Below are positions 410 to 26,325 of a stretch of 29,037 nt of DNA, in pieces (within the stretch, counting starts at the first letter, position 1; the number at the start of each line of letters is the position of its first letter). The notes below the pieces were generated by a model. It saw nothing but the letters and a program-made list of their open reading frames with translations. It was not told where the DNA came from and did not search any database. The stretch lies in IMG/VR virus record IMGVR_UViG_3300045988_046105, positions 1 through 29,037 of that record. One strand, given 5' to 3'. Position numbers and translations under genes: made by a program. This DNA is from a virus. Taxonomy: Duplodnaviria; Heunggongvirae; Uroviricota; Caudoviricetes.

Positions 410-740
410 ATCCCCCGCAGAACGCAAAGCCGCGCAGCGCGCTCGGCAGTCCGCCGCCGGTGAGCGCAAAATTGAACTGGTGCTGGATAAGCAGGAGCAG
501 GAAATGCTGGCGCGGAACTGCGCCGCCCGGCGCCCTGGTCGCGATCCCTATGAAATGGTCGAGTACATCGCGCTGCTGATCCGCCAGGATGATGCACGTG
601 TGCGCGGGCGTATAAAATCGATCAGCAGAAAACTTTGCGGTAAGTGCGGCGAGAGAGTTCCCGTTAATTCATGCCCGTGTAATGGTGACTCGCAATGCTG
701 GGTGACTAAAGGCTGGCATGAAACGAAATTAATAGTGTGA
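402..740 (+). CDS. hypothetical phage protein with C-terminal Cys cluster (possible metal-binding)
   Basis: ORF 393..740; GTG at 402 has GGAG 8 nt upstream. Basic N-terminus, C-terminal CGKCG...CPC...C motif. Stop TGA 738-740 lies inside the GTGACATGTCAC palindrome. Confidence 0.5.
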   Translation: MAKSPAERKAAQRARQSAAGERKIELVLDKQEQEMLARNCAARRPGRDPYEMVEYIALLIRQDDARVRGRIKSISRKLCGKCGERVPVNSCPCNGDSQCWVTKGWHETKLIV

Positions 741-748
741 CATGTCAC
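737..748. repeat. exact palindrome GTGACATGTCAC, copy 1 (14-mer TGTGACATGTCACG)
   Basis: Read directly; overlaps stop codon of 402..740 and lies in the 17-bp gap before the next gene. Confidence 0.9.
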
Positions 749-757
749 GAAGGTGTT

Positions 758-970
758 ATGCCAAAAATACGCTACGACCTTGAAGATATGAGAGATAACT
801 CAGCAAATTTTCCGAAAGAGGTTAAATTTCTCATGCATAAGTATGGTTGCGCCAGGATGGATATAGTTATCGACAGTCAGCACCCTTGCGGCGAGGATGT
901 AATTTTCATTCGCGGTAAATGGGAAGGGTATCTTGACGAGAGTTTTTACGATGAATTTGATGGACTTTGA
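758..970 (+). CDS. hypothetical protein (70 aa)
   Basis: In-frame ATG 758 with AAGGTG SD 4 nt upstream; the track's 737 start is a GTG lying inside the palindrome. No recognisable domain. Confidence 0.45.
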   Translation: MPKIRYDLEDMRDNSANFPKEVKFLMHKYGCARMDIVIDSQHPCGEDVIFIRGKWEGYLDESFYDEFDGL

Positions 971-1011
971 ATACTGCCGCCAACTATGGCGGCTTTATTT
1001 TGCATGGTACT

Positions 1012-1028
1012 ATTACCACAACGGTAAC
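1012..1028. promoter_or_regulatory. operator-like palindrome ATTACC-ACAAC-GGTAAC (site S0) within an 11-bp direct repeat ACTATTACCAC x2 (1009-1019, 1027-1037)
   Basis: Read directly; matches the ATTACC-N5-GGTAAT motif found at five other sites. Lies 17 bp upstream of the terminase small subunit ATG. Confidence 0.35.
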
Positions 1029-1044
1029 TATTACCACGGTGGTT

Positions 1045-1641
1045 ATGATGCCTGCTGAACCTAAAACCTATAAACGCAAATCAACGCAATTTAAGCCACT
1101 AACAGCAATGCAGGAGGCTTATTGCCAGTCATACATCAAAACGCCTGAAAACCAGACTCAGGCAGCGATTAATGCAGGATTCTCCCCAAATACAGCGGCA
1201 GTTAAAGCCAGTGTCATGATGCGCGATGAACGCATTCAAAAACGGATTGCCGAGTTGATGGAGGAGCGCAACAAACGAATGCGCGTCAGTGCTGATTACG
1301 TTCTCATGCGCCTGGTGGAGATCGACCAGATGGACGTGATCGACATCCTCAACGACGATGGGAGCCTTAAGCCAATCCGCGAGTGGCCGAAAATCTGGCG
1401 CACTACGCTTAGCGGCTTTGATCTGTCATCGACCATCATGAACATGAACGAGGATTCGATAGAGACAATCCTCAAAAAAATTAAATGGCCTGACAAGGTG
1501 AAGAACCTCGAACTGATTGGTAAGCACGTCGACGTCAACGCATTCAAAGAACGCCTGGATGTTAATGTGAATGTGACAATTGCTGATCGCATAGCAGCAG
1601 CCAGGAAGCGACTCAAAGAACGTCAGGATGGTAATCAGTGA
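1045..1641 (+). CDS. terminase small subunit
   Basis: ORF 967..1641 (TTG start); a more plausible start is the ATG-ATG pair at 1045. Sequence ...AAINAGFSPNTAAVKASVMMRDERIQKRIAEL... is typical of phage small terminase families (recollection). Stop overlaps the large-subunit start. Confidence 0.7.
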   Translation: MMPAEPKTYKRKSTQFKPLTAMQEAYCQSYIKTPENQTQAAINAGFSPNTAAVKASVMMRDERIQKRIAELMEERNKRMRVSADYVLMRLVEIDQMDVIDILNDDGSLKPIREWPKIWRTTLSGFDLSSTIMNMNEDSIETILKKIKWPDKVKNLELIGKHVDVNAFKERLDVNVNVTIADRIAAARKRLKERQDGNQ

Positions 1642-3113
1642 CAGATACAGTGTTATCTCCTGAAGAGCAGTTGATCGAGGATATTGCAGGGTTCACTCAC
1701 GATCCGCTTGGCTATGCCCTCTATGCGTTCCCGTGGGGGGAAGAGGGGACTGAACTGGCACATGCTACCGGTCCACGTCAGTGGCAGGCCGATGCGTTCC
1801 GAGAGATACGTGATCACCTGCAGAATCCAGAGACGCGTTATCAGCCGCTTATGCTGGCACGTGCTTCTGGTCACGGTATTGGTAAATCCGCATTCATCTC
1901 AATGCTCATCAACTGGGGCATGTCCACTTGCGAGGATTGTAAGGTCGTGGTGACCGCCAACACCGACAACCAGCTACGAACGAAGACCTGGCCGGAAATT
2001 ATCAAGTGGTCGAACCTTGCTATCACGAAAGACTGGTTTACCTGTACCGCTACCGCGATGTACAGCAATGACCCTGGGCACGACAAGCGGTGGCGGGCTG
2101 ATGCAATACCCTGGTCTGAGCACAACACTGAGGCATTCGCCGGACTACACAACGAGCGCAAACGCATCATCGTGGTATTCGATGAAGCGTCGAACATTGC
2201 GGATCTGGTGTGGGAAGTTGCTGAGGGTGCGCTTACGGACGAAGACACTGAGATTATCTGGGTGGCGTTCGGAAACCCTACACGTAATACCGGGCGTTTT
2301 CGCGAATGTTTCCGCAAATACAAACACCGCTGGAAAACTGCGCAGATTGACAGCCGGACGGTGGAAGGTACTAACAAACAGCAGTTGCAGAAATGGGTTG
2401 ATGACTACGGGGAAGACAGCGACTTCGTTAAAATCCGTGTGCGCGGCATATTCCCTGATGCATCTGAATTGCAGTTTATCCCTACCGGTCTTACTGATGA
2501 GGCCATGAAACGGGTGGTAACCGCTGCGCAGGTTGCACATGCTCCGGTGATAATCGGCGTTGACCCGGCATACTCCGGAGTTGATGACGCTGTGATATAC
2601 CTGCGGCAGGGGCTACACAGTAAGGTGCTGTGGACTGGCAACAAGACTACCGACGATCTGATTATGGCGAAGCGTATCGCTGACTTTGAAGACCAGTATC
2701 AGGCTGACGCGGTGTTCATCGACTTCGGTTACGGAACCGGTTTGAAGTCAATCGGTGACGGCTGGGGGCGTACATGGCAACTTGTTCCGTTCGGTGGCGC
2801 GTCTACTGACCCGCAGATGCTCAACAAGCGTGGGGAGATGTTCAATTCATGCAAGACATGGCTGAGGCTTGGCGGCATGCTGGATGACCAGGAAACAGCA
2901 GACGACCTGTCGGCGGCAGAGTACAAAGTTCGAGTGGACGGTAAAATCGTTATCGAACCGAAGGAAGATATCAAGGAGCGGCTTGGGCGTTCGCCTGGTA
3001 AAGGCGATGCGCTACTGCTGACGTTTGCTTTCCCGGTGTCAAAGCGCCTGCGAATTCCCGGGCAGCAGAACCAGCAAGGCAAGGCCATTACAGATTACGA
3101 TCCCTATGCTTAA
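1638..3113 (+). CDS. terminase large subunit
   Basis: 491 aa; Walker A-like GHGIGKS, acidic ...VVFDEAS..., position and size. GTG start overlapping the upstream stop (GTGA). Confidence 0.9.
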   Translation: MTDTVLSPEEQLIEDIAGFTHDPLGYALYAFPWGEEGTELAHATGPRQWQADAFREIRDHLQNPETRYQPLMLARASGHGIGKSAFISMLINWGMSTCEDCKVVVTANTDNQLRTKTWPEIIKWSNLAITKDWFTCTATAMYSNDPGHDKRWRADAIPWSEHNTEAFAGLHNERKRIIVVFDEASNIADLVWEVAEGALTDEDTEIIWVAFGNPTRNTGRFRECFRKYKHRWKTAQIDSRTVEGTNKQQLQKWVDDYGEDSDFVKIRVRGIFPDASELQFIPTGLTDEAMKRVVTAAQVAHAPVIIGVDPAYSGVDDAVIYLRQGLHSKVLWTGNKTTDDLIMAKRIADFEDQYQADAVFIDFGYGTGLKSIGDGWGRTWQLVPFGGASTDPQMLNKRGEMFNSCKTWLRLGGMLDDQETADDLSAAEYKVRVDGKIVIEPKEDIKERLGRSPGKGDALLLTFAFPVSKRLRIPGQQNQQGKAITDYDPYA

Positions 3114-3159
3114 TCCGTTAGCGGGGATAATGACGGAGATATCCTCTGGTGAGGATAAA

Positions 3160-3190
3160 ACAAAGCCAGCTCATCGGCTGGCTGTTTGTG
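3160..3190. terminator. bidirectional intrinsic terminator between convergent terminase and accessory gene
   Basis: Hairpin AGCCAGC-TCATCG-GCTGGCT (3164-3183), A-tract upstream and GTTTGT downstream on + strand. Confidence 0.5.
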
Positions 3191-3199
3191 ACATGTCAC
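3188..3199. repeat. exact palindrome GTGACATGTCAC, copy 2 (14-mer TGTGACATGTCACG)
   Basis: Read directly; 4 bp downstream of the stop of minus-strand gene 3204..3575. Confidence 0.9.
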
Positions 3200-3203
3200 G
3201 GTG

Positions 3204-3575
3204 TTATTGCTCGCTTAACTTCTGCTTCAGCAAGTAACCTTCAAGCATCCAGATTTTGTTTACAGCATTCTGCCGGGCAATCTTCCGACCAATTCCCGCA
3301 TCAAAGTTTTCCGGGCTTGCACAGGCGCTCTCTCCGGTGACGGTGAAGCCGTTGCGCAGCACCAGAACGCAGAACGTCAGCAGAGAAAGTGATTCGTGCG
3401 GCTGGTAGTTTACCTCTCCGCCAGTATGTTTCGCTTTTATGGCTACGCCAAAGACACCATCTTCTGCTGTGAAATATGCCTCCTGAGCAATAATGCTCTC
3501 GATATGGTCTGGCGTAACGCGCGGCGCGGCTAAACCTTTAGCCTGAATTTCAGATTCAATGTCTTTGTCACTCAT
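3204..3575 (-). CDS. conserved small phage protein of unknown function (123 aa); family not confidently identified
   Basis: Strong SD AAGGTGAG 8 nt before ATG; motif ...LLTFCVLVLRNGFTVTGESACASPENFDAGIGRKIARQNAVNKIWMLEGY... recalled from many enterobacterial prophage proteins. Opposite strand to all flanking virion genes. Confidence 0.65.
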   Translation of the reverse strand: MSDKDIESEIQAKGLAAPRVTPDHIESIIAQEAYFTAEDGVFGVAIKAKHTGGEVNYQPHESLSLLTFCVLVLRNGFTVTGESACASPENFDAGIGRKIARQNAVNKIWMLEGYLLKQKLSEQ

Positions 3576-3591
3576 AGTCTAATCTCACCTT

Positions 3592-3615
3592 AAAAAAATG
3601 CCCGGCGAACCGGGC
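3592..3615 (-). terminator. terminator-like hairpin plus U7 immediately upstream of the RBS of 3204..3575
   Basis: Minus strand: GCCCGG-UUCG-CCGGGC followed by AUUUUUUUAAGGUGAG; the SD begins right after the U-tract. Confidence 0.4.
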
Positions 3616-3691
3616 GAACTGGAAGCAATGAGTTATGCCTTCCGTGGCTGTACTGGTTTACAGCATGAAGTCATCGCAATGGCGTCCTGCT

Positions 3692-3735
3692 GTAAAAAGG
3701 GCGGTGATAGTCCTTCAAGGGAAACCATCACCGCC
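3692..3735 (-). terminator. hairpin downstream of tRNA-Arg (possible tRNA terminator)
   Basis: 9-bp inverted repeat GGCGGTGAT/ATCACCGCC with 18-nt loop, followed on minus strand by CUUUUUA. Confidence 0.3.
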
Positions 3736-3778
3736 AAGCACCTGGAACTTCTGGCATCACGGTCCTTAGGCGTGATTC

Positions 3779-3855
3779 TGGCGTGGCATGCAGGATTCGA
3801 ACCTGCGACCAACCGCTTAGAAGGCGGTTGCTCTGTCCAACTGAGCTAATGCCAC
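3779..3855 (-). tRNA. tRNA-Arg (anticodon UCU), 77 nt, CCA encoded
   Basis: Hand-folded reverse complement GTGGCATTAGCTCAGTTGGACAGAGCAACCGCCTTCTAAGCGGTTGGTCGCAGGTTCGAATCCTGCATGCCACGCCA: 7-bp acceptor, 4-bp D stem, 5-bp anticodon stem, loop CUUCUAA, 5-bp T stem with TTCGAAT loop. Confidence 0.9.
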
Positions 3856-4176
3856 AACGCTGAGAGCACTTAGCCTGTTAAGGCGCCACACTTTGTCGCG
3901 GCTCCATAAATGCTCTCATCGTTGTACCCTCGTCTCTTCCGAGGCGTCACACCGAATCGCCGGGATGGTGAATCCCCGTGCGCGGAATAAAACCGCTCGA
4001 CTTGCACATTCCGGCTACCTGGTTCGTTTGCCCGAGCAAGGGAGGGTGCCCCTTAAACGTATCCAGACCGCTATCGTCGCATGTGCCATACGCCGTACTG
4101 CTCAAAATAAAAGCTCACTCCACCTGTTCAATTTAACGACAAGCCAGTCAGGTTAATAACCGGAATGAACTATTTA

Positions 4177-4193
4177 CTTACCTGAAGGGTAAT
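4177..4193. promoter_or_regulatory. operator-like palindrome CTTACC-TGAAG-GGTAAT (site S6) upstream of the portal operon
   Basis: Read directly; sits in the ~420-bp non-coding region 3856-4282 about 90 bp upstream of the first structural-operon ATG. Confidence 0.4.
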
Positions 4194-4282
4194 AATTCGT
4201 GCATTAAATGTCAACTATCTACGATAAATAAATCATATGTGGTTAAATTGGTAATAATTTAATTGCGTACGGAGTCATTGAT

Positions 4283-4489
4283 ATGTGCATGGGTAGCTCA
4301 CCATCAGTGCCTGCAACACCAGAAGTTCAGGCAGCACCACAGGAGCAGGATGCCGCCGTTGTTGATGCCCGCGACGAAGAAACACGTCGCCGTCGCGCTG
4401 CTGCTGGTCGTAGTTCTACGCTGCTTACCGGTTCTCAGGGCGACACATCAACCGCTAATACCAGCGGTAAAACGCTGCTTGGTCAGTAA
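4283..4489 (+). CDS. small hypothetical protein (68 aa)
   Basis: ATG with GGAG SD; RBS context GGAGTCATTGA-ATG is duplicated almost exactly at the portal start (4491-4506). No recognisable domain. Confidence 0.45.
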   Translation: MCMGSSPSVPATPEVQAAPQEQDAAVVDARDEETRRRRAAAGRSSTLLTGSQGDTSTANTSGKTLLGQ

Positions 4490-4503
4490 CCGGAGTCATT
4501 GAA

Positions 4504-6183
4504 ATGGCGGAAACAACTAAAGAGCGATTGAACAAACAGTTCGCACAACTTGAAAGCGAGCGTCAGTCGTTCGAGCCGCACTGGCGCGAGTTGAGTGATT
4601 ACATCAACCCGCGTGGTTCCCGCTTTCTGACTTCTGAGGTCAACCGTAACGATCGACGCAATACACGCATTATTGATTCGACCGGGACTATGGCGGCGCG
4701 CACTCTCGCCAGCGGCATGATGTCAGGCATCACAAGCCCCGCCCGTCCGTGGTTTCGCCTGGCTACGCCAGATCCTGAAATGATGGATTATGGCCCTGTT
4801 AAGTTGTGGCTTGAGGCGGTGCAGAACCGCATGAACGATATGTTCAATAAGTCGAATCTCTACCAGTCTCTTCCGCAGTTATACGGAAGCCTCGGCACAT
4901 ACAGCACTGGTGCAATGGCGGTGCTGGAGGATGACGAGGACATCATTCGCACAATGCCATTCCCTATAGGCAGTTACTACCTGGCTAACTCACCTCGTGG
5001 CAGTGTGGACACCTGTTTCCGCAAGTTCTCTATGACTGTTCGTCAGCTTGTTCAGGAGTTCGGGCTAAATAACGTCAGCGAATCCGTAAAAAGCATGTGG
5101 GAAAGCGGCACCTACGAGAAGTGGATTGAAGTGATGCATTCGGTTTACCCGAACATTGACCGCGATACATCGAAGCTGGATAGCAAGAACAAGCCATTCA
5201 AATCGGTTTATTACGAGGTTGGTGGCGATAACGACAAGTTGTTGCGTGAGTCCGGATTCGATGAGTTTCCAATTATGGCTCCGCGCTGGGAAGTTAACGG
5301 CGAAGATGTTTATGGATCATCATGCCCGGGTATGCTGGCGCTTGGACCTGTTAAGGCATTGCAGCTTCTCCAGAAGCGCAAGTCGCAGTTGATTGATAAA
5401 GCCACCAATCCGCCGATGGTTGCTCCGACTTCCCTCAAGAATCAGCGCGCCTCCCTTCTTCCTGGCGACATCACGTATATCGATCAGATTACTGGTCAGG
5501 ATGGCTTCAGGCCTGCTTATCTGGTTAACCCCAGTACAGCAGATTTGGTGGCAGACATTCAGGACACCCGTCAAATCATTAACAGCGCCTACTTTGTCGA
5601 TCTGTTCATGATGTTGCAGAACATCAATACCCGCTCGATGCCTGTTGAAGCGGTAATCGAAATGAAAGAAGAAAAACTTCTGATGTTGGGGCCGGTTCTG
5701 GAGCGTCTGAACGACGAATGTCTTAATCCTCTCATTGACCGCGCTTTCTCGATGATGGTGCGTAAAAACATGCTGCCGCCACCGCCTGACGCGATGGAAG
5801 GCATGCCCCTGAAGGTCGAATACATTTCCGTCATGGCTCAGGCGCAGAAGTCTATCGGCCTGTCCAGTCTGGCGTCCACGGTTAACTTCATTGGTCAACT
5901 TGCGCAAGCGAAACCAGAAGCTCTCGACAAACTCAACGTTGATCAGGCGATCGATGCATTCGCTGATATGTCCGGAGTGTCTCCAACCGTCATTGTTCCG
6001 CAGGAACAGGTTGAGCAGGCTCGCCAGCAACGGGCACAGCAGCAACAGCAGCAACAAATGATGGCGATGGGGATGGCGGCGGCACAGGGTGTCAAGACGC
6101 TAAGTGAAGCTAAAACTTCGGATCCGAGTGTGTTGTCAGCTATGGCGAATGCAGTTAGTGGTCAGGGTGGGCAATCACAATGA
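4504..6183 (+). CDS. portal (head-to-tail connector) protein, T7 gp8-like
   Basis: 559 aa; overall pattern and Q/M-rich C-terminus (QQQQQQQMMAMGMAAAQG) resemble T7 gp8 as recalled; position after terminase. Confidence 0.85.
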   Translation: MAETTKERLNKQFAQLESERQSFEPHWRELSDYINPRGSRFLTSEVNRNDRRNTRIIDSTGTMAARTLASGMMSGITSPARPWFRLATPDPEMMDYGPVKLWLEAVQNRMNDMFNKSNLYQSLPQLYGSLGTYSTGAMAVLEDDEDIIRTMPFPIGSYYLANSPRGSVDTCFRKFSMTVRQLVQEFGLNNVSESVKSMWESGTYEKWIEVMHSVYPNIDRDTSKLDSKNKPFKSVYYEVGGDNDKLLRESGFDEFPIMAPRWEVNGEDVYGSSCPGMLALGPVKALQLLQKRKSQLIDKATNPPMVAPTSLKNQRASLLPGDITYIDQITGQDGFRPAYLVNPSTADLVADIQDTRQIINSAYFVDLFMMLQNINTRSMPVEAVIEMKEEKLLMLGPVLERLNDECLNPLIDRAFSMMVRKNMLPPPPDAMEGMPLKVEYISVMAQAQKSIGLSSLASTVNFIGQLAQAKPEALDKLNVDQAIDAFADMSGVSPTVIVPQEQVEQARQQRAQQQQQQQMMAMGMAAAQGVKTLSEAKTSDPSVLSAMANAVSGQGGQSQ

Positions 6184-6476
6184 CAGATTACGAAGACGAT
6201 CAACTGAAAGAAGAAAACGCCCGTAAGCAACGTGACATGGCACAGCGTGAAATTGATGACATTCGCTTTGTCATGAGCAGTGAACAGGGGCGTCGCGTTG
6301 TCTGGTCGGTGCTGGAGAAAGGCCGTGTGTTTTCCGCTATCTCTCCGATGGATGCTATGGCAATGGCATTTAATGAGGGGCAACGCAATCTGGCGCTGGA
6401 ACTGTTTCAGCGCGTTATGGCGCATTGCCCTGAACAGTATTTGAAGATGGCCAAAGAGGCCAGTGAACAGGAGTGA
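6180..6476 (+). CDS. hypothetical virion-module protein (98 aa)
   Basis: ATG overlaps portal stop (ATGA); acidic small protein; no family recognised. Confidence 0.5.
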   Translation: MTDYEDDQLKEENARKQRDMAQREIDDIRFVMSSEQGRRVVWSVLEKGRVFSAISPMDAMAMAFNEGQRNLALELFQRVMAHCPEQYLKMAKEASEQE

Positions 6477-6478
6477 TC

Positions 6479-7174
6479 ATGAATTTATTTGAGCGTTTGC
6501 TGTATCGCCGTCTTTGCAATGAGCAACCAGTCGATGGTGGAGCAGCTCCGGCTGCGTCAGAACCGTCAGCGCCTGCAGGTGATAACCCTGCTCCAGTTGG
6601 TGATCCATCACAACAGGAAGGTGATAAGCCACAACCTGTTGCTGATGGCGATAAACCTGCTGATGACAAAAAGCCTGAAAACGATAAGCAGGATGAAAAA
6701 AAGGACGGCGATAAACCAGAGGGTGCGCCTGAGAAGTACGAGTTTCAGGCTGCCGAAGGCGTAGAGCTGGATACAGAAGCGTTGAAGGAATTCGAGCCGG
6801 TGGCGCGAGAACTAAACCTGACCAACGAGCAAGCGCAAAAGCTGGTTGATGCTTATCCGAAGATTCTGGCAGGTGTGCAGCAGCGCCAGGCAGAAGCCTG
6901 GCAGAAAACAACCGAGCAGTGGGCTGCTGATGTAAAAGCTGACAAAGAAATCGGTGGCGACAAGTTGATTTCTAACCTTAGCGCCGCACAGCGTGCGCTT
7001 GACCAGTTCGGGACACCTGAGCTCAAAGAATATCTGAACACCACCGGACTGGGTAATCACCCTGATCTGGTCAAAACGTTCGTGAAAATCGGAAAGGCGA
7101 TGTCTGAGGATGGCATGGTCACCGGTGGTAATGAAGGCCAGCGTAGTGCGGCCGAAGTGCTCTATGGCAAATAA
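6479..7174 (+). CDS. scaffolding protein (predicted)
   Basis: ATG 6479 with AGGAG SD (track start 6473 is GTG). Acidic low-complexity N-half (DGDKPADDKKPENDKQDEKKDGDKPE) and helical C-half; sits between portal and major capsid. Confidence 0.65.
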   Translation: MNLFERLLYRRLCNEQPVDGGAAPAASEPSAPAGDNPAPVGDPSQQEGDKPQPVADGDKPADDKKPENDKQDEKKDGDKPEGAPEKYEFQAAEGVELDTEALKEFEPVARELNLTNEQAQKLVDAYPKILAGVQQRQAEAWQKTTEQWAADVKADKEIGGDKLISNLSAAQRALDQFGTPELKEYLNTTGLGNHPDLVKTFVKIGKAMSEDGMVTGGNEGQRSAAEVLYGK

Positions 7175-7188
7175 GAGAGGAAATAACA

Positions 7189-8175
7189 ATGGCTGTTAAA
7201 GGCTTAACTGCGCTAACGCTGGCTGACTGGGGTAAGCGCGTCGATCCAGATGGGAAAGTCGATAAGATTATCGAGCTTCTCGGTCAAACTAACCCGATCC
7301 TTCAGGATATGCCTTTTGTCGAAGGGAACCTTCCTACCGGACACAAAACCACCATTCGTTCTGGTTTACCTTCAGCTACCTGGCGTTTGTTGAACTATGG
7401 CGTACAACCAAGCAAATCAACCACAGTGCAGGTCACCGATTCCATTGGTATGTTGGAAACCTATGCTGAAGTCGATAAGTCACTGGCTGATCTGAGCGGC
7501 AATACCGCCGAATTCCGCCTGTCTGAAGACCGCGCATTTATTGAAGCGATGAATCAGCAGATGGCGCAGACGCTGTTTTATGGTGATTCCAGCGTTAACC
7601 CTCAGCAGTTTATGGGACTGTCCTCCCGCTATTCCAGCCTGTCTGCGGGTAATGCTCAGAACATCATTGATGCTGGTGGCACGGGTACAGATAACACCTC
7701 AATCTGGTTAGTGGTGTGGGGCGAAAACACCGTGCATGGCATCTTCCCGAAAGGGCAGAAGGCTGGCATCCAGATGGAAGATAAAGGCCAGGTGACACTG
7801 GAAGATGCTAGTGGCGGCAAGTACGAAGGCTATCGTACCCATTACAAATGGGATAACGGACTTTCTCTGCGTGACTGGCGTTATGTTGTTCGCATTGCAA
7901 ACATCGATGTCAGCAATCTTTCAGAACCTTCCTCTGCCGCAAATATTGCGAAGTTGATGGTTAAAGCACTGCATCGCATTCCAAATCGTGGCATGGGTCG
8001 CCCGGTGTTCTACATGAACCGCACTGTAGGCCAGGCTCTTGATCTGCAATCTCTGGAGAAAACATCTCTGGCGATCAGCGTAAAAGAGACAGAAGGAGAG
8101 TGGTGGACTTCATTCCGTGGTGTACCAATCCGTGAAACTGATGCGCTTCTGGAAACAGAAGCCCGCGTGGTGTAA
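7189..8175 (+). CDS. major capsid protein
   Basis: 328 aa, strong SD GAGAGG, directly after scaffold; size and position; family not identified without a search. Confidence 0.8.
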   Translation: MAVKGLTALTLADWGKRVDPDGKVDKIIELLGQTNPILQDMPFVEGNLPTGHKTTIRSGLPSATWRLLNYGVQPSKSTTVQVTDSIGMLETYAEVDKSLADLSGNTAEFRLSEDRAFIEAMNQQMAQTLFYGDSSVNPQQFMGLSSRYSSLSAGNAQNIIDAGGTGTDNTSIWLVVWGENTVHGIFPKGQKAGIQMEDKGQVTLEDASGGKYEGYRTHYKWDNGLSLRDWRYVVRIANIDVSNLSEPSSAANIAKLMVKALHRIPNRGMGRPVFYMNRTVGQALDLQSLEKTSLAISVKETEGEWWTSFRGVPIRETDALLETEARVV

Positions 8176-20487: not shown

Positions 20488-20868
20488 ATGAGAAAAGTAT
20501 TTTTGATTTTTGGATTTATGCTTCTCGTTGGATGCCAGTCAGCTGCACAGTTTGAAAGAAATATGCTTACGTGGCGCGGGCAGAGTATAGACGCAATGGT
20601 TCAGCAGTGGGGGTATCCTCAGGGAGAGCTTACATCTCCAGATGGAAACAGAGTGTATGTTTACTCAAGCTCTGGTAGTTATAACGTACCACAAACCACA
20701 ACGTATAATACTACGTCTAATCTAATTGGTAATACTATATATTCAAACACATACGCAACAACTGATGGCGGTTATACACTCCATTTCAGTTGCTCTGTTT
20801 ACGTTGAGTTTGGTGCTGATAAGATTATTAAAAATGTTACATGGCGCGGTAATAATTGCGTTGCGTGA
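20488..20868 (+). CDS. lipoprotein (moron; candidate superinfection-exclusion / receptor-masking factor)
   Basis: ATG 20488 with AGGGG SD; signal peptide MRKVFLIFGFMLLVGC with lipobox LVGC; AT-rich gene unlike flanking virion genes; stop inside palindrome copy 3. Confidence 0.6.
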   Translation: MRKVFLIFGFMLLVGCQSAAQFERNMLTWRGQSIDAMVQQWGYPQGELTSPDGNRVYVYSSSGSYNVPQTTTYNTTSNLIGNTIYSNTYATTDGGYTLHFSCSVYVEFGADKIIKNVTWRGNNCVA

Positions 20869-20876
20869 CATGTCAC
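20865..20876. repeat. exact palindrome GTGACATGTCAC, copy 3 (14-mer in inverted orientation, CGTGACATGTCACA)
   Basis: Read directly; overlaps lipoprotein stop codon. Confidence 0.9.
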
Positions 20877-20901
20877 AGGCCGCTTTCGCGGCCTTGTTTT
20901 T
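20877..20901 (+). terminator. intrinsic terminator of lipoprotein gene
   Basis: AGGCCGC-TTTC-GCGGCCT followed by TGTTTTTA. Confidence 0.6.
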
Positions 20902-21154: not shown

Positions 21155-21694
21155 TTACCAAAACTTGTACCACGGGGATTTATCCTTCAATGGACAATCC
21201 TTCCATCGTGTGGCCAACCATTCATATTCTTTAAAATATGTGTTTATGTTTTCTTTTTCTCTAATGGCTTGTATAAGAGGTAGCGCAATCTGATAGTTAT
21301 TTACAACGGAGCTGTAAAATACTTCCTTAATCATGGTCTCATCATAAGTTTTCCGCTTCACGCTCACAGCCATGCGTTCGTAGAAACCTAGACAGTAAAT
21401 TATTTCTCTCTTCTCTGTCTTTTCTTCATCCGTAAGATCAGCCTGCCCATTGCTTGGATACATATAAGAGCGGAATGATTTGTTCGATTCGTGAATGCGG
21501 CGCATAGTAGATAGGCCTTTCTTATAATCTACATCAAACCTGCTTTCACCAAGGAATACTGAAGTGTGTACTTTTCTCGCTGTATTTACATTATAAATAA
21601 TAGTAGCGATAGCTATGAACAAGCCAAGCGAAACCGCGACTGCACTTACGATTTGAGCCACAGCCATGGCAAATTGCATTTCTTCACTTAACAC
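21155..21694 (-). CDS. membrane-anchored protein with ~150-aa predicted cytoplasmic domain (candidate exclusion/abortive-infection factor)
   Basis: GTG 21694 with GGAGA SD 6 nt upstream (alternative ATG 21679). One long N-terminal TM helix followed by basic residues. AT-rich. No family recognised. Confidence 0.55.
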   Translation of the reverse strand: MLSEEMQFAMAVAQIVSAVAVSLGLFIAIATIIYNVNTARKVHTSVFLGESRFDVDYKKGLSTMRRIHESNKSFRSYMYPSNGQADLTDEEKTEKREIIYCLGFYERMAVSVKRKTYDETMIKEVFYSSVVNNYQIALPLIQAIREKENINTYFKEYEWLATRWKDCPLKDKSPWYKFW

Positions 21695-21711
21695 AAACTG
21701 TCTCCAGACAT

Positions 21712-21735
21712 GAAAACGGGGCCTAATGGCCCCGT
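21712..21735 (-). terminator. terminator-like hairpin (candidate attenuator) immediately upstream of RBS of 21155..21694
   Basis: Minus strand: ACGGGGCC-AUUA-GGCCCCGU then UUUCAUGU, followed 8 nt later by GGAGA and the start codon. Confidence 0.4.
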
Positions 21736-21753
21736 CATTAAACTATCCGAATG

Positions 21754-21786
21754 TTAAACGCCTTCGTACTCGTCAAATTTTCTCAT
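21754..21786 (-). CDS. candidate leader peptide MRKFDEYEGV (10 aa)
   Basis: ATG preceded by AGGAGGAG at 5-nt spacing; ends 18 nt before the attenuator-like hairpin. Could be coincidental. Confidence 0.2.
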   Translation of the reverse strand: MRKFDEYEGV

Positions 21787-21822
21787 GTGGGCTCCTCCTG
21801 TATCGGTGCCTAATCGCTATGG

Positions 21823-21839
21823 ATCACCCGTGAGGTAAT
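21823..21839. promoter_or_regulatory. operator-like palindrome ATCACC-CGTGA-GGTAAT (site S7) overlapping predicted -10/+1 of the 21155..21694 promoter
   Basis: Read directly; minus-strand promoter TGTACA-N18-TACTAT predicted by eye. Confidence 0.4.
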
Positions 21840-21870
21840 AGTAAGCTATTCACCTGCAATCTGTACAGAA

Positions 21871-24092: not shown

Positions 24093-24195
24093 ATCTATTC
24101 GTATTTACAGCCTTTTTATCCATATGTGGTTTTTCAGGTAATAGAATAACCAGATATGCGGCGCAACGGGTGCTGCGACTATCTGGAGATTTAAC

Positions 24196-26325
24196 ATGAC
24201 GGTCTCAACCGAAGTTGACCACAACGAATACACCGGTAACGGCGTTACGACATCGTTTCCGTATACTTTTCGAATTTTCAGAAAATCAGACCTGGTTGTT
24301 CAGGTGTCTGACCTGAACGGGAACGTAACAGAATTGGTCCTGGATACCGGTTATACGGTAACTGGGGCGGGCACTTATAGTGGCGGTTCTGTGGTTCTTC
24401 CGTCTCCGCTTGCTACTGGCTGGCGAATTACGATAGATCGTGTGCTTGATGTAGTGCAGGAGACAGACCTTCGCAATCAGGGAAAATTTTTCCCCGAAGT
24501 GCATGAAGATGCCTTTGACTACCTGACGATGCTGATCCAGCAATGTTTTGGGTGGTTCAGACGTGCATTGATGAAGCCCTCTCTGCTTGCAAAATATTAC
24601 GATGCAAAGCAAAACAGAATTTCTAACCTTGCAGATCCATCACTTGAGCAGGATGCTGTAAATAATCGCTCAATGCGTAATTATGTCGATGCTGCAATCG
24701 CCGGGGTTGTTGGTGGTTTTGGTTGGTTTATTCAGTATGGTTCTGGGGCTGTGTACCGAACGTTCCAGGATAAGATGAGAGACACCATTAGTGTTCGTGA
24801 TTTTGGTGCAAAAGGAGACGGCATAACAGATGATACTGTAGCAATTCAAAATGCTATTAATGCAGTACCAGAAGGGGCTATACTTGGATTTTATGGTGGT
24901 GAATTTGTTTTTGATAAGGTTGAATTGTTTAAGCCAATAACATTAGTTGGTGATGCAACGTTAATTCACAACGGATTTAGAATAAAATCTAGCAGAATCC
25001 GATCACTTTTATCTGGCGTTCAGAAATGCAAGGATTACTCCGAGTCTTCAAGAGCATTTTATTGCTATGCAAATGAAGACCAAAGAGATTATGACGATAT
25101 TCAGATTTTATTTAATAGATTTGAAGGTTTCTTTTACTCTACGGCATTTGTTGCAAAAAACTATTATTTGGAGAATGACCCTAATTCAAGAATTGTCAAA
25201 AACACAAAAGTAATAGGGTGTACATCAGTTGCTCCTGATTCTGTAAATGCCGGTCATTTTCAACATATAGGCGTTACAAATGCTGAAACATCACATAACT
25301 CAACTTATGGCGGACAAAATGCAACATCATACAACTTCATTAACCAGAATGGATTTGTAAGGATTATAGGAAATTATGACCATAACAATAGCTATGGTTC
25401 ATGTGAGCTTGAGAACTCAATGGTGAGTAACTCAGTCATATCAGGTAATACGTTTTCGTCATATTTATGGGTGGATGATACAAGTAATGTTACTATTTCT
25501 GGAAATACCGTTTCATCAAGGATCAAAGTAACATCGCAAACTGACGATGTTCATAATATAACCATATCAGCAAATACCACAAAACGGATTACTATAGAGC
25601 AATTTGGAGAATCGCCGACAGGTCTGGTATATGGTGCATTAATTTCCTGCAACACTATTACTGGCGACAGTGATGGAAGTTCAGACATTTTATGTGCGTC
25701 ACTTGTTACAGGTGAAATTTCATCAAATTATTGTCATGGATCAGAAAAAAATATATCAATTGTCCGCCTGGATTCTTCTGATATAACTGTTAGAAACAAT
25801 AAAGGAAACAAAGGATTACTTACAATAAGTAACGATGGTGGAAGGATAATTGAATATGGCAATGATTCTATGGTTCTGTCTGGAAGCATAGATAGCAGAC
25901 ATATACATAATTTATTACATCCAGACACATCGTATTTAGACCTACCGGGGAAATATCTGCACGGAACTAAATATACTGGCAGTATCCCCCCCGGTTCCAC
26001 AGGAACTGTATCACTTCAAATACCATCAGGGGCAAGCCTTGTTTTCAGGGGCGTTTCTATATGGGTTCTAATTAGAGATGTTAGCAATAACAATATATCG
26101 TCATTCAGAATTGATGGTTCATATAGAGTTGTTGGTGGAAGTGTTGGTCTTAGTTTTGCTGATGCTTATTCGAAACTCGGGGTGGATGCAAACTCTATAA
26201 CAGTGTCAAACAATAACAGCACTTCTGGCAATATCAGCATAGCAATTAAAAACACAGATTCATCAAAAACCCTTCAGGTTACTGTTATGCCGGAGGTTTC
26301 AAGCAGGTTAGGTATTGAGGAATAG
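24196..26325 (+). CDS. tailspike protein with beta-helix (pectate-lyase-like) receptor-binding/depolymerase domain
   Basis: 709 aa, SD TGGAGA; conserved-looking N-terminal module then DFGAKGDGITDDTVAIQNAI motif typical of right-handed beta-helix glycanases; C-terminal two-thirds AT-rich with Asn/Ser/Thr-rich repeats. Confidence 0.85.
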   Translation: MTVSTEVDHNEYTGNGVTTSFPYTFRIFRKSDLVVQVSDLNGNVTELVLDTGYTVTGAGTYSGGSVVLPSPLATGWRITIDRVLDVVQETDLRNQGKFFPEVHEDAFDYLTMLIQQCFGWFRRALMKPSLLAKYYDAKQNRISNLADPSLEQDAVNNRSMRNYVDAAIAGVVGGFGWFIQYGSGAVYRTFQDKMRDTISVRDFGAKGDGITDDTVAIQNAINAVPEGAILGFYGGEFVFDKVELFKPITLVGDATLIHNGFRIKSSRIRSLLSGVQKCKDYSESSRAFYCYANEDQRDYDDIQILFNRFEGFFYSTAFVAKNYYLENDPNSRIVKNTKVIGCTSVAPDSVNAGHFQHIGVTNAETSHNSTYGGQNATSYNFINQNGFVRIIGNYDHNNSYGSCELENSMVSNSVISGNTFSSYLWVDDTSNVTISGNTVSSRIKVTSQTDDVHNITISANTTKRITIEQFGESPTGLVYGALISCNTITGDSDGSSDILCASLVTGEISSNYCHGSEKNISIVRLDSSDITVRNNKGNKGLLTISNDGGRIIEYGNDSMVLSGSIDSRHIHNLLHPDTSYLDLPGKYLHGTKYTGSIPPGSTGTVSLQIPSGASLVFRGVSIWVLIRDVSNNNISSFRIDGSYRVVGGSVGLSFADAYSKLGVDANSITVSNNNSTSGNISIAIKNTDSSKTLQVTVMPEVSSRLGIEE

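Follow-up and report, generated by a model that had tools for sequence, protein, structure and literature searches.

Acb4 of Bacillus phage SPO1, with 96 aa, is the founding member of the Pfam family PF13876 ('Phage protein (N4 Gp49/phage Sf6 gene 66) family', Phage_gp49_66), and it assembles into a pinwheel-shaped tetramer with four ligand pockets at the protomer interfaces (Chang et al., bioRxiv 10.1101/2024.12.30.630793; PDB 9E4W). The tetramer holds four molecules of 3'3'-cyclic GMP-AMP (3'3'-cGAMP) with a dissociation constant (Kd) of ~157 nM, and it also binds 3'2'-cGAMP, 2'3'-cGAMP and cUA; it blocks activation of the effector Cap5, and it rescued a T4 mutant from an operon of the cyclic oligonucleotide-based antiphage signaling system, CBASS (bioRxiv 10.1101/2024.12.30.630793). 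In the present work, we analyzed a gene assigned to this family, acb4, in a 29,037-nt stretch of Caudoviricetes DNA (IMG/VR record IMGVR_UViG_3300045988_046105, positions 1 to 29,037; "the window" below means this whole stretch). The gene lies on the minus strand between the terminase and portal genes, behind a tRNA gene and a conserved structured RNA.

Other members of the family have been characterized. Eight further Acb4 homologs were purified, all of which bind 3'3'-cGAMP and none of which binds c-di-GMP, binding of 3'3'-c-di-AMP being restricted to homologs from phages of Gram-negative hosts; moreover, 8 of 8 modeled homologs fold as tetramers (bioRxiv 10.1101/2024.12.30.630793). The N4 protein gp49 (N4 Acb4) binds c-di-AMP at 111 nM, and is both necessary and sufficient to trigger the sponge-sensing counter-defense PanDA (bioRxiv 10.64898/2026.08.10.743972). 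With regard to structured RNAs heading phage operons, the put RNA of HK022 acts on RNA polymerase as an antiterminator (PMC9378689), and lambdoid phages lacking N are presumed to use an RNA mechanism (PMC12315714).

Compared to these systems, the protein of the window adds one catalogued Acb4 sponge, from a temperate O157-type phage, which is of modest interest. The value lies in its surroundings, namely the exchangeable slot behind the tRNA, together with a covarying RNA that is unnamed in databases and that heads early operons of Uetakeviruses, of lambdoids without an annotated N, and of phage P1. Within a limited literature search, this surrounding architecture (a sponge slot behind a tRNA, together with the covarying RNA) is undescribed. 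We consider it likely that positions 3164-4213 constitute one minus-strand accessory unit, running against the grain between terminase and portal, which would read in order: an operator-covered sigma-70 promoter, a leader RNA of ~245 nt, tRNA-Arg(UCU), two terminator-like hairpins, acb4 and a bidirectional terminator. The anatomy itself is established, and its elements are the following:

4185..4213, minus strand: probable sigma-70 promoter, read from the sequence, with -35 TTGACA (4213..4208), 17-nt spacer and -10 TACCCT (4190..4185)
4178..4192, unstranded: operator palindrome TTACCTGAAGGGTAA, found by motif enrichment; putative repressor site over the -10
3922..4098, minus strand: conserved pseudoknotted RNA core, belonging to no Rfam family (alignment A4, covariance model R1)
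3857..3925, minus strand: long closing stem-loop CAACGaTGAGAGCA ... TGCTCTCAgCGTTG (compensatory changes in alignment A3; minimum free energy (MFE) fold)
3779..3855, minus strand: tRNA-Arg, anticodon UCU (tct), reading AGA (ARAGORN; Rfam RF00005, 73.3 bits)
3691..3735, minus strand: 14-bp hairpin (3735..3700) followed by CTTTTT, the first terminator-like structure past the tRNA (terminator scan)
3592..3615, minus strand: hairpin GCCCGG-TTCG-CCGGGC (3615..3600), an A, and a run of seven T (T7, 3598..3592) (terminator scan)
3584..3591, minus strand: Shine-Dalgarno sequence AAGGTGAG, 8 nt before the ATG at 3575 (read from the sequence)
3204..3575, minus strand: acb4, 123-aa Acb4-family (PF13876) protein, predicted cyclic-dinucleotide sponge (Pfam, profile and fold)
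3164..3183, unstranded: bidirectional intrinsic terminator AGCCAGCCGATGAGCTGGCT, followed by TTGTTTT on the minus strand (terminator scan; rho-independent terminator in the phiV10 annotation)

The Acb4 protein and the cargo slot it occupies

An earlier first-pass annotation, made from the DNA letters without database searches, had, with an uncertain family assignment, suggested the 123-aa protein as a candidate anti-defense factor, such as a signal sponge of the anti-Thoeris kind, and had named a Pfam search and a structure comparison as ways of checking it; both were run. The protein matched PF13876 with 118.8 bits (E 1.5e-34; gathering score 27) over profile positions 1-82 of 82. Enterobacterial prophages encode homologs in their thousands, under the name 'Gp49 family protein', and many full-length prophage copies are 96-97% identical to the window protein. 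Against the PDB sequences, phmmer yielded 9e4w as the sole match (E 0.064), a profile of 26 homologs reached the same entry with E 1.3e-5, and hhalign aligned to it with 94.6% probability. In addition, an AlphaFold2 (AF2) monomer model (pLDDT 83.9, from the predicted local distance difference test) displayed strands at residues 29-36, 67-73 and 78-83 and a helix at 93-122. When this model was searched against the PDB with Foldseek, the best 13 matches were all chains of 9E4W (probability 0.99-1.0; target-normalized template modeling (TM) score 0.52-0.67), while the first match to any other structure had a probability of 0.16 only, leaving no other convincing match. Family membership and fold are established, and the assignment to Acb4 can be taken as practically certain. 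The earlier annotation was right in kind as to a signal sponge and wrong as to Thoeris, the family being an anti-CBASS one.

The gene is not new, as the family is published and the phiV10 ortholog, Q287B5, is already listed among 1,331 Acb4 homologs (Table S3 of bioRxiv 10.1101/2024.12.30.630793). Q287B5 and the window protein differ by two substitutions, E94G and A105V, with G94 and V105 in the window. Similarly to SPO1 Acb4, the window protein is a small, single-domain, phage-encoded member of the Pfam family, with a core of three antiparallel strands, N-terminal helices and a long C-terminal helix. It differs in being only ~20% identical and 27 residues longer, in that its N-terminal helical region is more extended and its loop at 45-60 is variable, and in not keeping the polar base-specific contacts. 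The set of SPO1 ligand contacts (K36, F48, E49, V56, Y57, F62, N63, I66, T70 and K81) was compared through the HMMER alignment: the hydrophobic and stacking contacts are retained (F48=F77, F62=F91 and I66=I95), V56 is replaced by C85, and N63, a backbone contact, by D92. N4 gp49 is considerably closer (45% identity over 107 residues, E 7e-29) and likewise an E. coli phage protein, and the window protein would be expected to behave alike. N4 is a lytic schitovirus with another genomic context, and its protein carries a Cys-rich C-terminal tail that is absent here. By homology with these characterized relatives, the window protein is probably a functional cyclic-dinucleotide sponge. A prediction is then that phages of the phiV10 type escape CBASS and are vulnerable to sponge-sensing systems, PanDA among them.

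What surrounds the gene was compared among Uetakeviruses (alignment A2). The DNA rightward from the T7 hairpin, a block made up of both hairpins, the tRNA and 427 bp upstream of it, is conserved, whereas the DNA to its left is unrelated among these phages, and the edge of the conserved block is exactly that hairpin. All cargo variants of this slot are encoded on the minus strand and have in common the layout of a hairpin followed by a ribosome-binding site (RBS). Besides acb4, the following cargo was found:

Salmonella phage SPN1S (L002, 2080-2274): 64-aa phrog_11227 protein
TL-2011b (L004, 1700-2047): 115-aa phrog_3163 protein
EC.W1-9 (L005, 2332-2937): 201-aa phrog_4780 protein
Tyrion (L003, 1247-2705): DUF551 protein and two others, no tRNA

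Moreover, a Tad2-like protein (PF11195, 72.5 bits) is encoded behind the RNA in 22 of 126 distinct viral-contig copies, and a second Tad2-like type (38.6 bits) in five more, making 27 loci together (L082 and L071 among them). The position behind the tRNA is, overall, an exchangeable cargo slot that repeatedly holds immune-signal sponges. As a fixed address at which sponges are swapped, it makes the uncharacterized cargo (phrog_11227, phrog_3163, phrog_4780 and the DUF551 protein) anti-defense candidates by position, and a cheap source of candidates for new anti-defense proteins. The gene and the tRNA had previously been described as inserted between terminase and portal, which holds for the exchangeable cargo gene; the tRNA and the block upstream of it show genus-wide conservation, and the interruption itself is not a recent insertion in this phage. 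The slot resembles the moron and anti-defense slots of temperate phages, where a fixed regulatory platform is followed by swappable small genes, in that its cargo includes sponges (Acb4, Tad2-like), and in having its own promoter and terminator, directed against the late-operon flow. It differs from them in that the platform consists of an RNA and a tRNA, and in that the cargo begins right after a terminator-like hairpin and not after a promoter.

The covarying RNA and its genomic contexts

The whole RNA covers ~245 nt (4098..3857), and its closing stem ends 1-2 nt before the 5' end of the tRNA. When positions 3590-4290 were searched with blastn, matches other than tRNAs were found in E. coli PhiR63_1 and Stenotrophomonas BUCT709, which are unrelated temperate phages; in both, the match lies directly after cI. 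Alignment A3, which includes Salmonella and Klebsiella Uetakeviruses, displays compensatory changes between CCTCG/CGAGG, CCTGG/CCAGG and CCCGG/CCGGG, as well as a compensatory pair in which TGAGAGCA/TGCTCTCA stands against GTAGCTCA/TGAGCTAC.

A structure of six helices, including two pseudoknots, was then written on alignment A4, composed of 37 diverse copies. Of the A4 cells assigned to pairs, 98.9% are paired, whereas shuffling the columns gives 92.3% and sliding the partners 25-46%. Changes on both sides are seen in ten pairs (67 cells), and none of 500 shuffles reaches these values. The CACC/GGTG pseudoknot covaries as well, with CG replaced by AU in four sequences. Covariation of the RNA is, therefore, established. 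The RNAalifold consensus, in which the invariant GGCACAT was joined to ATGTGC at the expense of the local hairpin P1, was not adopted: columns 8 and 20 covary perfectly (GC in 19 copies, AU in 18), and thus the local hairpin P1 was used, the GGCACAT/ATGTGC pairing being kept as a possible pseudoknot. Folding of the single RNA sequence was uninformative (z = -1.43). Invariance of the 19-mer GGTAGCCGGAATGTGCAAG in A4 is partly by construction, an exact match having been the criterion by which most copies were collected; copies found by blastn (P1, mEp390, Klebsiella phages and a Stenotrophomonas phage) also carry GGTAGCCGGAATGTGCAAG.

Covariance model R1 detected exactly one copy in each of the window (4098..3922; 138.6 bits, E 7e-42), phage P1 (131 bits), where it lies between trnI and ban in the C1-controlled ban operon, and mEp390 (155 bits), where it follows the repressor gene. 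The RNA copies located in other phages are the following:

P1 (L131): 3499-3681
mEp390 (L132): 2438-2597
PhiR63_1 (L007): 2501-2746

Rfam 15 yielded no match over 3840-4120 at E <= 10, and over 3000-4600 at E <= 1 only the tRNA and a sub-threshold antisense Plastid-ycf2 match lying over the tRNA (26.4 bits, gathering score 65.7).

The distribution of the RNA is equally established. The exact core 19-mer GGTAGCCGGAATGTGCAAG occurs in at least 120 IMG/VR contigs and in 24 species-representative genomes, nearly all of them Enterobacteriaceae. By blastn against complete E. coli genomes, the RNA is present in 1,840 of 5,426, at 2,471 places, 554 of which are on plasmids and presumably represent P1-type phage-plasmids; it was unannotated in all 25 sampled rows of these matches. 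Regarding its context, 43 of 126 copies have an adjoining tRNA, which is in every case encoded on the strand of the RNA: tRNA-Arg(tct) is directly downstream in 27 (1-2 nt gap) and tRNA(cat) directly upstream in 16 (~14 nt gap). In 48 of the 126, the RNA is directly downstream of a same-strand CI/LexA-type repressor gene, which is the PL-leader position, and the annotations of the cdtI and 2H10 phages show no N-like gene from cI to the early-left genes. A sigma-70-like site is found within 160 nt upstream of 68 of 131 copies, as compared to 3 and 0 in control windows and 6 in antisense, and a hairpin followed by a T-run is found within 700 nt downstream, in sense orientation, of 82 of 102 copies, as compared to 44 upstream and 29 in antisense. 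These downstream terminator-like sites are most frequent at 200-400 nt past the 19-mer (~100-300 nt past the core), and usually precede the first open reading frame (ORF).

In such a position, the RNA is reminiscent of the put elements, processive antiterminators that act on RNA polymerase in cis and are blocked by mutations in the rpoC zinc-binding domain: in common with those of HK022 and HK639, it is a promoter-proximal, sense-strand structured RNA of repressor-controlled early operons, and as with HK022 putL/putR and HK639 putL, it occupies the N/nutL place of lambdoids without an annotated N and has terminators downstream. It differs in size and structure (~245 nt with pseudoknots, against ~70 nt in HK022 and 126 nt in HK639), in being present as one copy per genome, and in being often fused to a tRNA. 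GGTAGCCGGAATGTGCAAG is absent from HK022 and HK639 with up to 3 mismatches. Homology to the put RNAs was also considered on the basis of short strings shared with HK639 putL (CGGCG...CGTCG, GGAAGAG), which did not score.

Probable promoter, terminator-like hairpins and proposed expression of acb4

The first-pass annotation had also placed an operator, S6, in this gap, and the palindrome TTACCTGAAGGGTAA at 4178-4192 indeed belongs to an enriched motif: TTACC-N5-GGTAA occurs 8 times in the window against 0.46 expected, and 11 times in 20.6 kb of phiV10 against 0.5 expected. Of the phiV10 sites, two fall in the intergenic region of the repressor gene (p40) and the cro-like gene (p41), two are found where the leftward early operon begins, and two precede p45. 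The early promoters of phiV10 share a layout consisting of an operator, ~19 nt, 'atcta' with TTGACA or TTGATT, 17 nt, AATTAT or TTTAAT, and a second operator beginning at the last T of the -10. In the window, the -10 TACCCT lies inside the palindrome (4192..4178 on the minus strand). SPN1S retains the hexamers TTGACA and TACCTT with a diverged spacer, and a relaxed scan found TTGACA-17-TACCTT upstream of the RNA in many relatives. Based on this position, we somewhat favor the view that 3164-4213 is a repressor-controlled early unit, its minus-strand transcript starting near 4178. With its -10 under the operator, the unit would be shut off in the lysogen and switched on immediately upon infection or induction, which is the timing needed by an anti-defense gene.

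Downstream of the tRNA, the hairpin with its T7 run directly before the RBS had been pointed out previously, and the end of the T-run is 0-2 nt from the Shine-Dalgarno sequence. In SPN1S, both halves of its stem are changed jointly (GCCCGG/CCGGGC to GCCCAC/GTGGGC), which indicates that it is maintained as a structure and is no chance match. The 14-bp hairpin is also kept in relatives, with compensating changes in SPN1S, and the MFE fold of 3778..3576 has a z of -3.56. The terminator at 3164..3183 serves both the convergent terminase gene and acb4. Two candidate positions for a separate acb4 promoter were discarded: the scan found none between the T7 hairpin and acb4, where only ~17 nt separate the T-run from the ATG, and none between the tRNA and the T7 hairpin. 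As the space from the T7 run to the Shine-Dalgarno sequence is too short for a promoter, acb4 would be expressed only from transcripts that pass both hairpins.

The same layout had been noted for the gene at 21694..21155, and there too a hairpin, CGGGGCC-atta-GGCCCCG, and TTTT are found just before GGAGA and a GTG start. Upstream of that gene (21700-21840, minus strand), we observed an operator-like TTACCTCACGGGTGA, an RBS with a 10-codon ORF (MRKFDEYEGV), a GC hairpin with TTTT, and the RBS of the gene, an arrangement that resembles a leader-peptide attenuator.

In the reading that we propose, the leader RNA would render RNA polymerase terminator-resistant, allowing read-through of both hairpins into acb4. 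The resulting Acb4, a homotetramer by homology, would sequester CBASS cyclic dinucleotides, so that the host effector stays inactive, and tRNA-Arg(UCU) would supply AGA decoding to the tailspike gene. The ligands shown for the family are 3'3'-cGAMP and cUA and, for members from Gram-negative phages, also 3'3'-c-di-AMP. It should be stressed that we infer the ligand, the timing and, above all, the read-through mechanism. For the latter, the position, orientation and promoter proximity of the RNA, the terminators downstream and the N/nutL place all fit, by analogy; antitermination by the RNA is, nonetheless, a tentative proposal, to which we give rather less than even weight. With the same reserve, the RNA may be the founding example of an undescribed class of leader RNAs, put-like without put homology, serving as a substitute for N/nut and as a platform for the cargo slot. 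If it is true that the RNA carries polymerase through terminators, this would explain how the early-left operon of N-less lambdoids is expressed.

Several observations weigh against the proposed reading. The -10 TACCCT matches the consensus at 3 of 6 positions, below the standard promoter-scan threshold, so that the promoter was left uncalled, and the palindrome at 4178-4192 is a probable repressor site by position only. Model R1 found no match anywhere in the HK022 and HK639 genomes, and none in the annotated HK639 putL even when the filters were switched off, and the antitermination role hence rests on positional analogy. In P1, the RNA is 2.3 kb from Pban and no terminator lies close behind it. 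A terminator 100-300 nt past a promoter-proximal RNA would suit a stand-alone small-RNA gene equally well. As to the protein, polar contacts of SPO1 Acb4 are altered (E49 to T78, Y57 to A86 and T70 to I99, with K36 and K81 unmatched), and the exact ligand or ligand preference is thus not predictable from sequence; the changes would fit the altered specificity reported for homologs from Gram-negative phages. Finally, residue 94 is G (codon 3294-3296), at a position occupied by E in at least 90% of the 26 close homologs aligned (motif ENFDAEIGRK). G94 adjoins I95, an adenine-pocket residue, and could tune ligand preference.

This last substitution, together with the two terminators, raises the question of whether acb4 is a decaying or silent passenger that gives little or no functional protein, all the more so as there is no promoter between the terminator and the gene. 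However, the ORF is intact and has a good Shine-Dalgarno sequence, the protein is 96-97% identical to many full-length prophage copies, the Acb4 proteins of the SPO1-like SPO1L1 and SPO1L2 likewise have G at position 94, and the hairpin-then-RBS layout is common to all cargo variants of the slot, which makes a passenger improbable. Even less credible, and in our view very improbable, is that the intact protein is an anti-Thoeris sponge of the Tad1/Tad2/Sequestin kind. Relatives do carry Tad2-like genes in the same slot, from which the earlier suggestion may stem, and Acb4 is frequently fused to Tad2/Sequestin domains (bioRxiv 10.1101/2025.07.12.664507), with homolog P0052 combining PF21825 and PF13876. 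Nevertheless, the window protein is single-domain, and it matched neither PF11195 (Tad2) nor PF21825 in Pfam at E <= 10, although cargo proteins of related loci do score on PF11195 in that search (72.5 bits); the fold search yielded Acb4 only, with no Tad1, Tad2 or Sequestin among its matches. Moreover, Acb4 has no structural homology to Tad1, Tad2 or Acb2 (bioRxiv 10.1101/2024.12.30.630793), and the ligands shown for the family are those of CBASS and not glycocyclic ADP-ribose (gcADPR). The absence of a PF11195 match even at E <= 10 led us to reject the anti-Thoeris assignment, while upholding the idea of a signal sponge.

The more serious competitor concerns the transcript and not the protein. 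The promoter, RNA and tRNA could form a self-contained small-RNA/tRNA gene ending at the two terminators, with acb4 expressed by leak-through; the RNA would then be freed by RNase P and RNase E to act in trans, as a decoy or regulator with a possible anti-defense role. Clustering of the terminator-like sites shortly after the core, ahead of any ORF, is what such a gene would present, and so are the single RNA copy per genome and the lack of similarity to put RNAs. In addition, the RNA would be excised precisely by RNase P and 3' processing wherever it has a neighboring tRNA. Against this, a sponge must be abundant, which leak-only expression fits badly; in lambdoids the RNA stands first in the sole early-left operon, whose genes a dead-end transcript would leave unexpressed; and in the P1 type ban is directly behind the RNA with no close terminator. 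We give a stand-alone small-RNA gene slightly less weight than leader-dependent read-through into acb4, which is kept as the working proposal.

The terminase-portal gap, the tRNA and minor sequence features

Positions 3000-4600 are 99.1% identical to Escherichia phage phiV10, and phiV10-type phages are ~97% identical over ~80% of the length of the whole window; phiV10 is a Uetakevirus, the genus of epsilon15-like temperate podophages. The genes and the interval flanking the unit are the following:

967-1641: small terminase (PF03592)
1638-3113, plus strand: large terminase
3856-4282: interval of 427 bp from the tRNA to the gp3-like ORF
4283-4489: epsilon15 gp3-like ORF, 68 aa (phrog_831)
4504-6183, plus strand: portal (PF12236, 624 bits)

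Terminase and portal are separated, as the first-pass annotation had stated, yet the distance is not the ~1.2 kb it gave: the gp3-like ORF precedes the portal gene, and the true gap is 1,390 bp. Within it, the minus-strand gene of 123 aa was recovered as ORF 3575..3204 and the tRNA-Arg(UCU) at 3855..3779 on the minus strand by both ARAGORN and Rfam. No further tRNA genes or pseudogenes were found in the gap, ARAGORN detecting one tRNA only and Rfam no second one at E <= 1. The interruption is common to the Uetakevirus relatives examined, among which only the gene behind the tRNA differs, and it is, therefore, old and genus-wide.

The ~420 bp upstream of the tRNA had been called non-coding; 427 bp are there, although they hold the operator-overlapped promoter and the structured RNA. 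Protein-coding content of 3856-4282 was considered and set aside: the ORFs 3893-4156 and 3978-4136 on the plus strand, and 3947-4105 and 3870-4007 on the minus strand, are short with TTG or GTG starts, annotated ORFs at the homologous place in other phages vary in length, and conservation there consists of compensatory pairs. The plus-strand ORF 3598-3849 (83 aa), annotated as PhiV10p04 in phiV10, runs antisense over the tRNA and the two hairpins; it was, for that reason, taken as spurious and is probably not a gene.

The tRNA has a simple rationale of an ordinary kind, that is, AGA decoding for an AGA-rich tailspike gene. AGA represents 15 of the 32 Arg codons in the 709-aa tailspike gene (24196-26325), and none in the terminase, portal, scaffold and capsid genes (967-8175) or in acb4. 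The AGA richness of the tailspike gene is a sign of acquisition from an AT-richer source.

Some additional sequence features were observed in the window. The element CATATGTGGTT-N5-GGTAATA is common to the plus strand before the gp3-like and portal genes (4220-4282) and before the tailspike gene (24100-24147), and it sits after an operator palindrome. It looks like the early-promoter layout in degenerate form, the -35 and -10 elements being poor. This stretch is almost invariant between E. coli and Salmonella phages, and on that account it may be an activator-dependent late promoter. The small-terminase ORF, annotated with a TTG start, contains two adjacent operator-type palindromes (1013-1045) and, directly after them, an in-frame ATG-ATG (1045-1050), which may be the real start of the small terminase, with the operators upstream. 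Lastly, a 14-bp palindrome, TGTGACATGTCAC(G/A), is present in 4 copies against 0.11 expected in the window (736-749, 3187-3200, 20864-20877 and, with 2 mismatches, 6231-6244); one copy falls in the stretch from the stop codon of acb4 to the bidirectional terminator, and another is located where the gene of the Zn-finger regulator ends, directly upstream of the small terminase.

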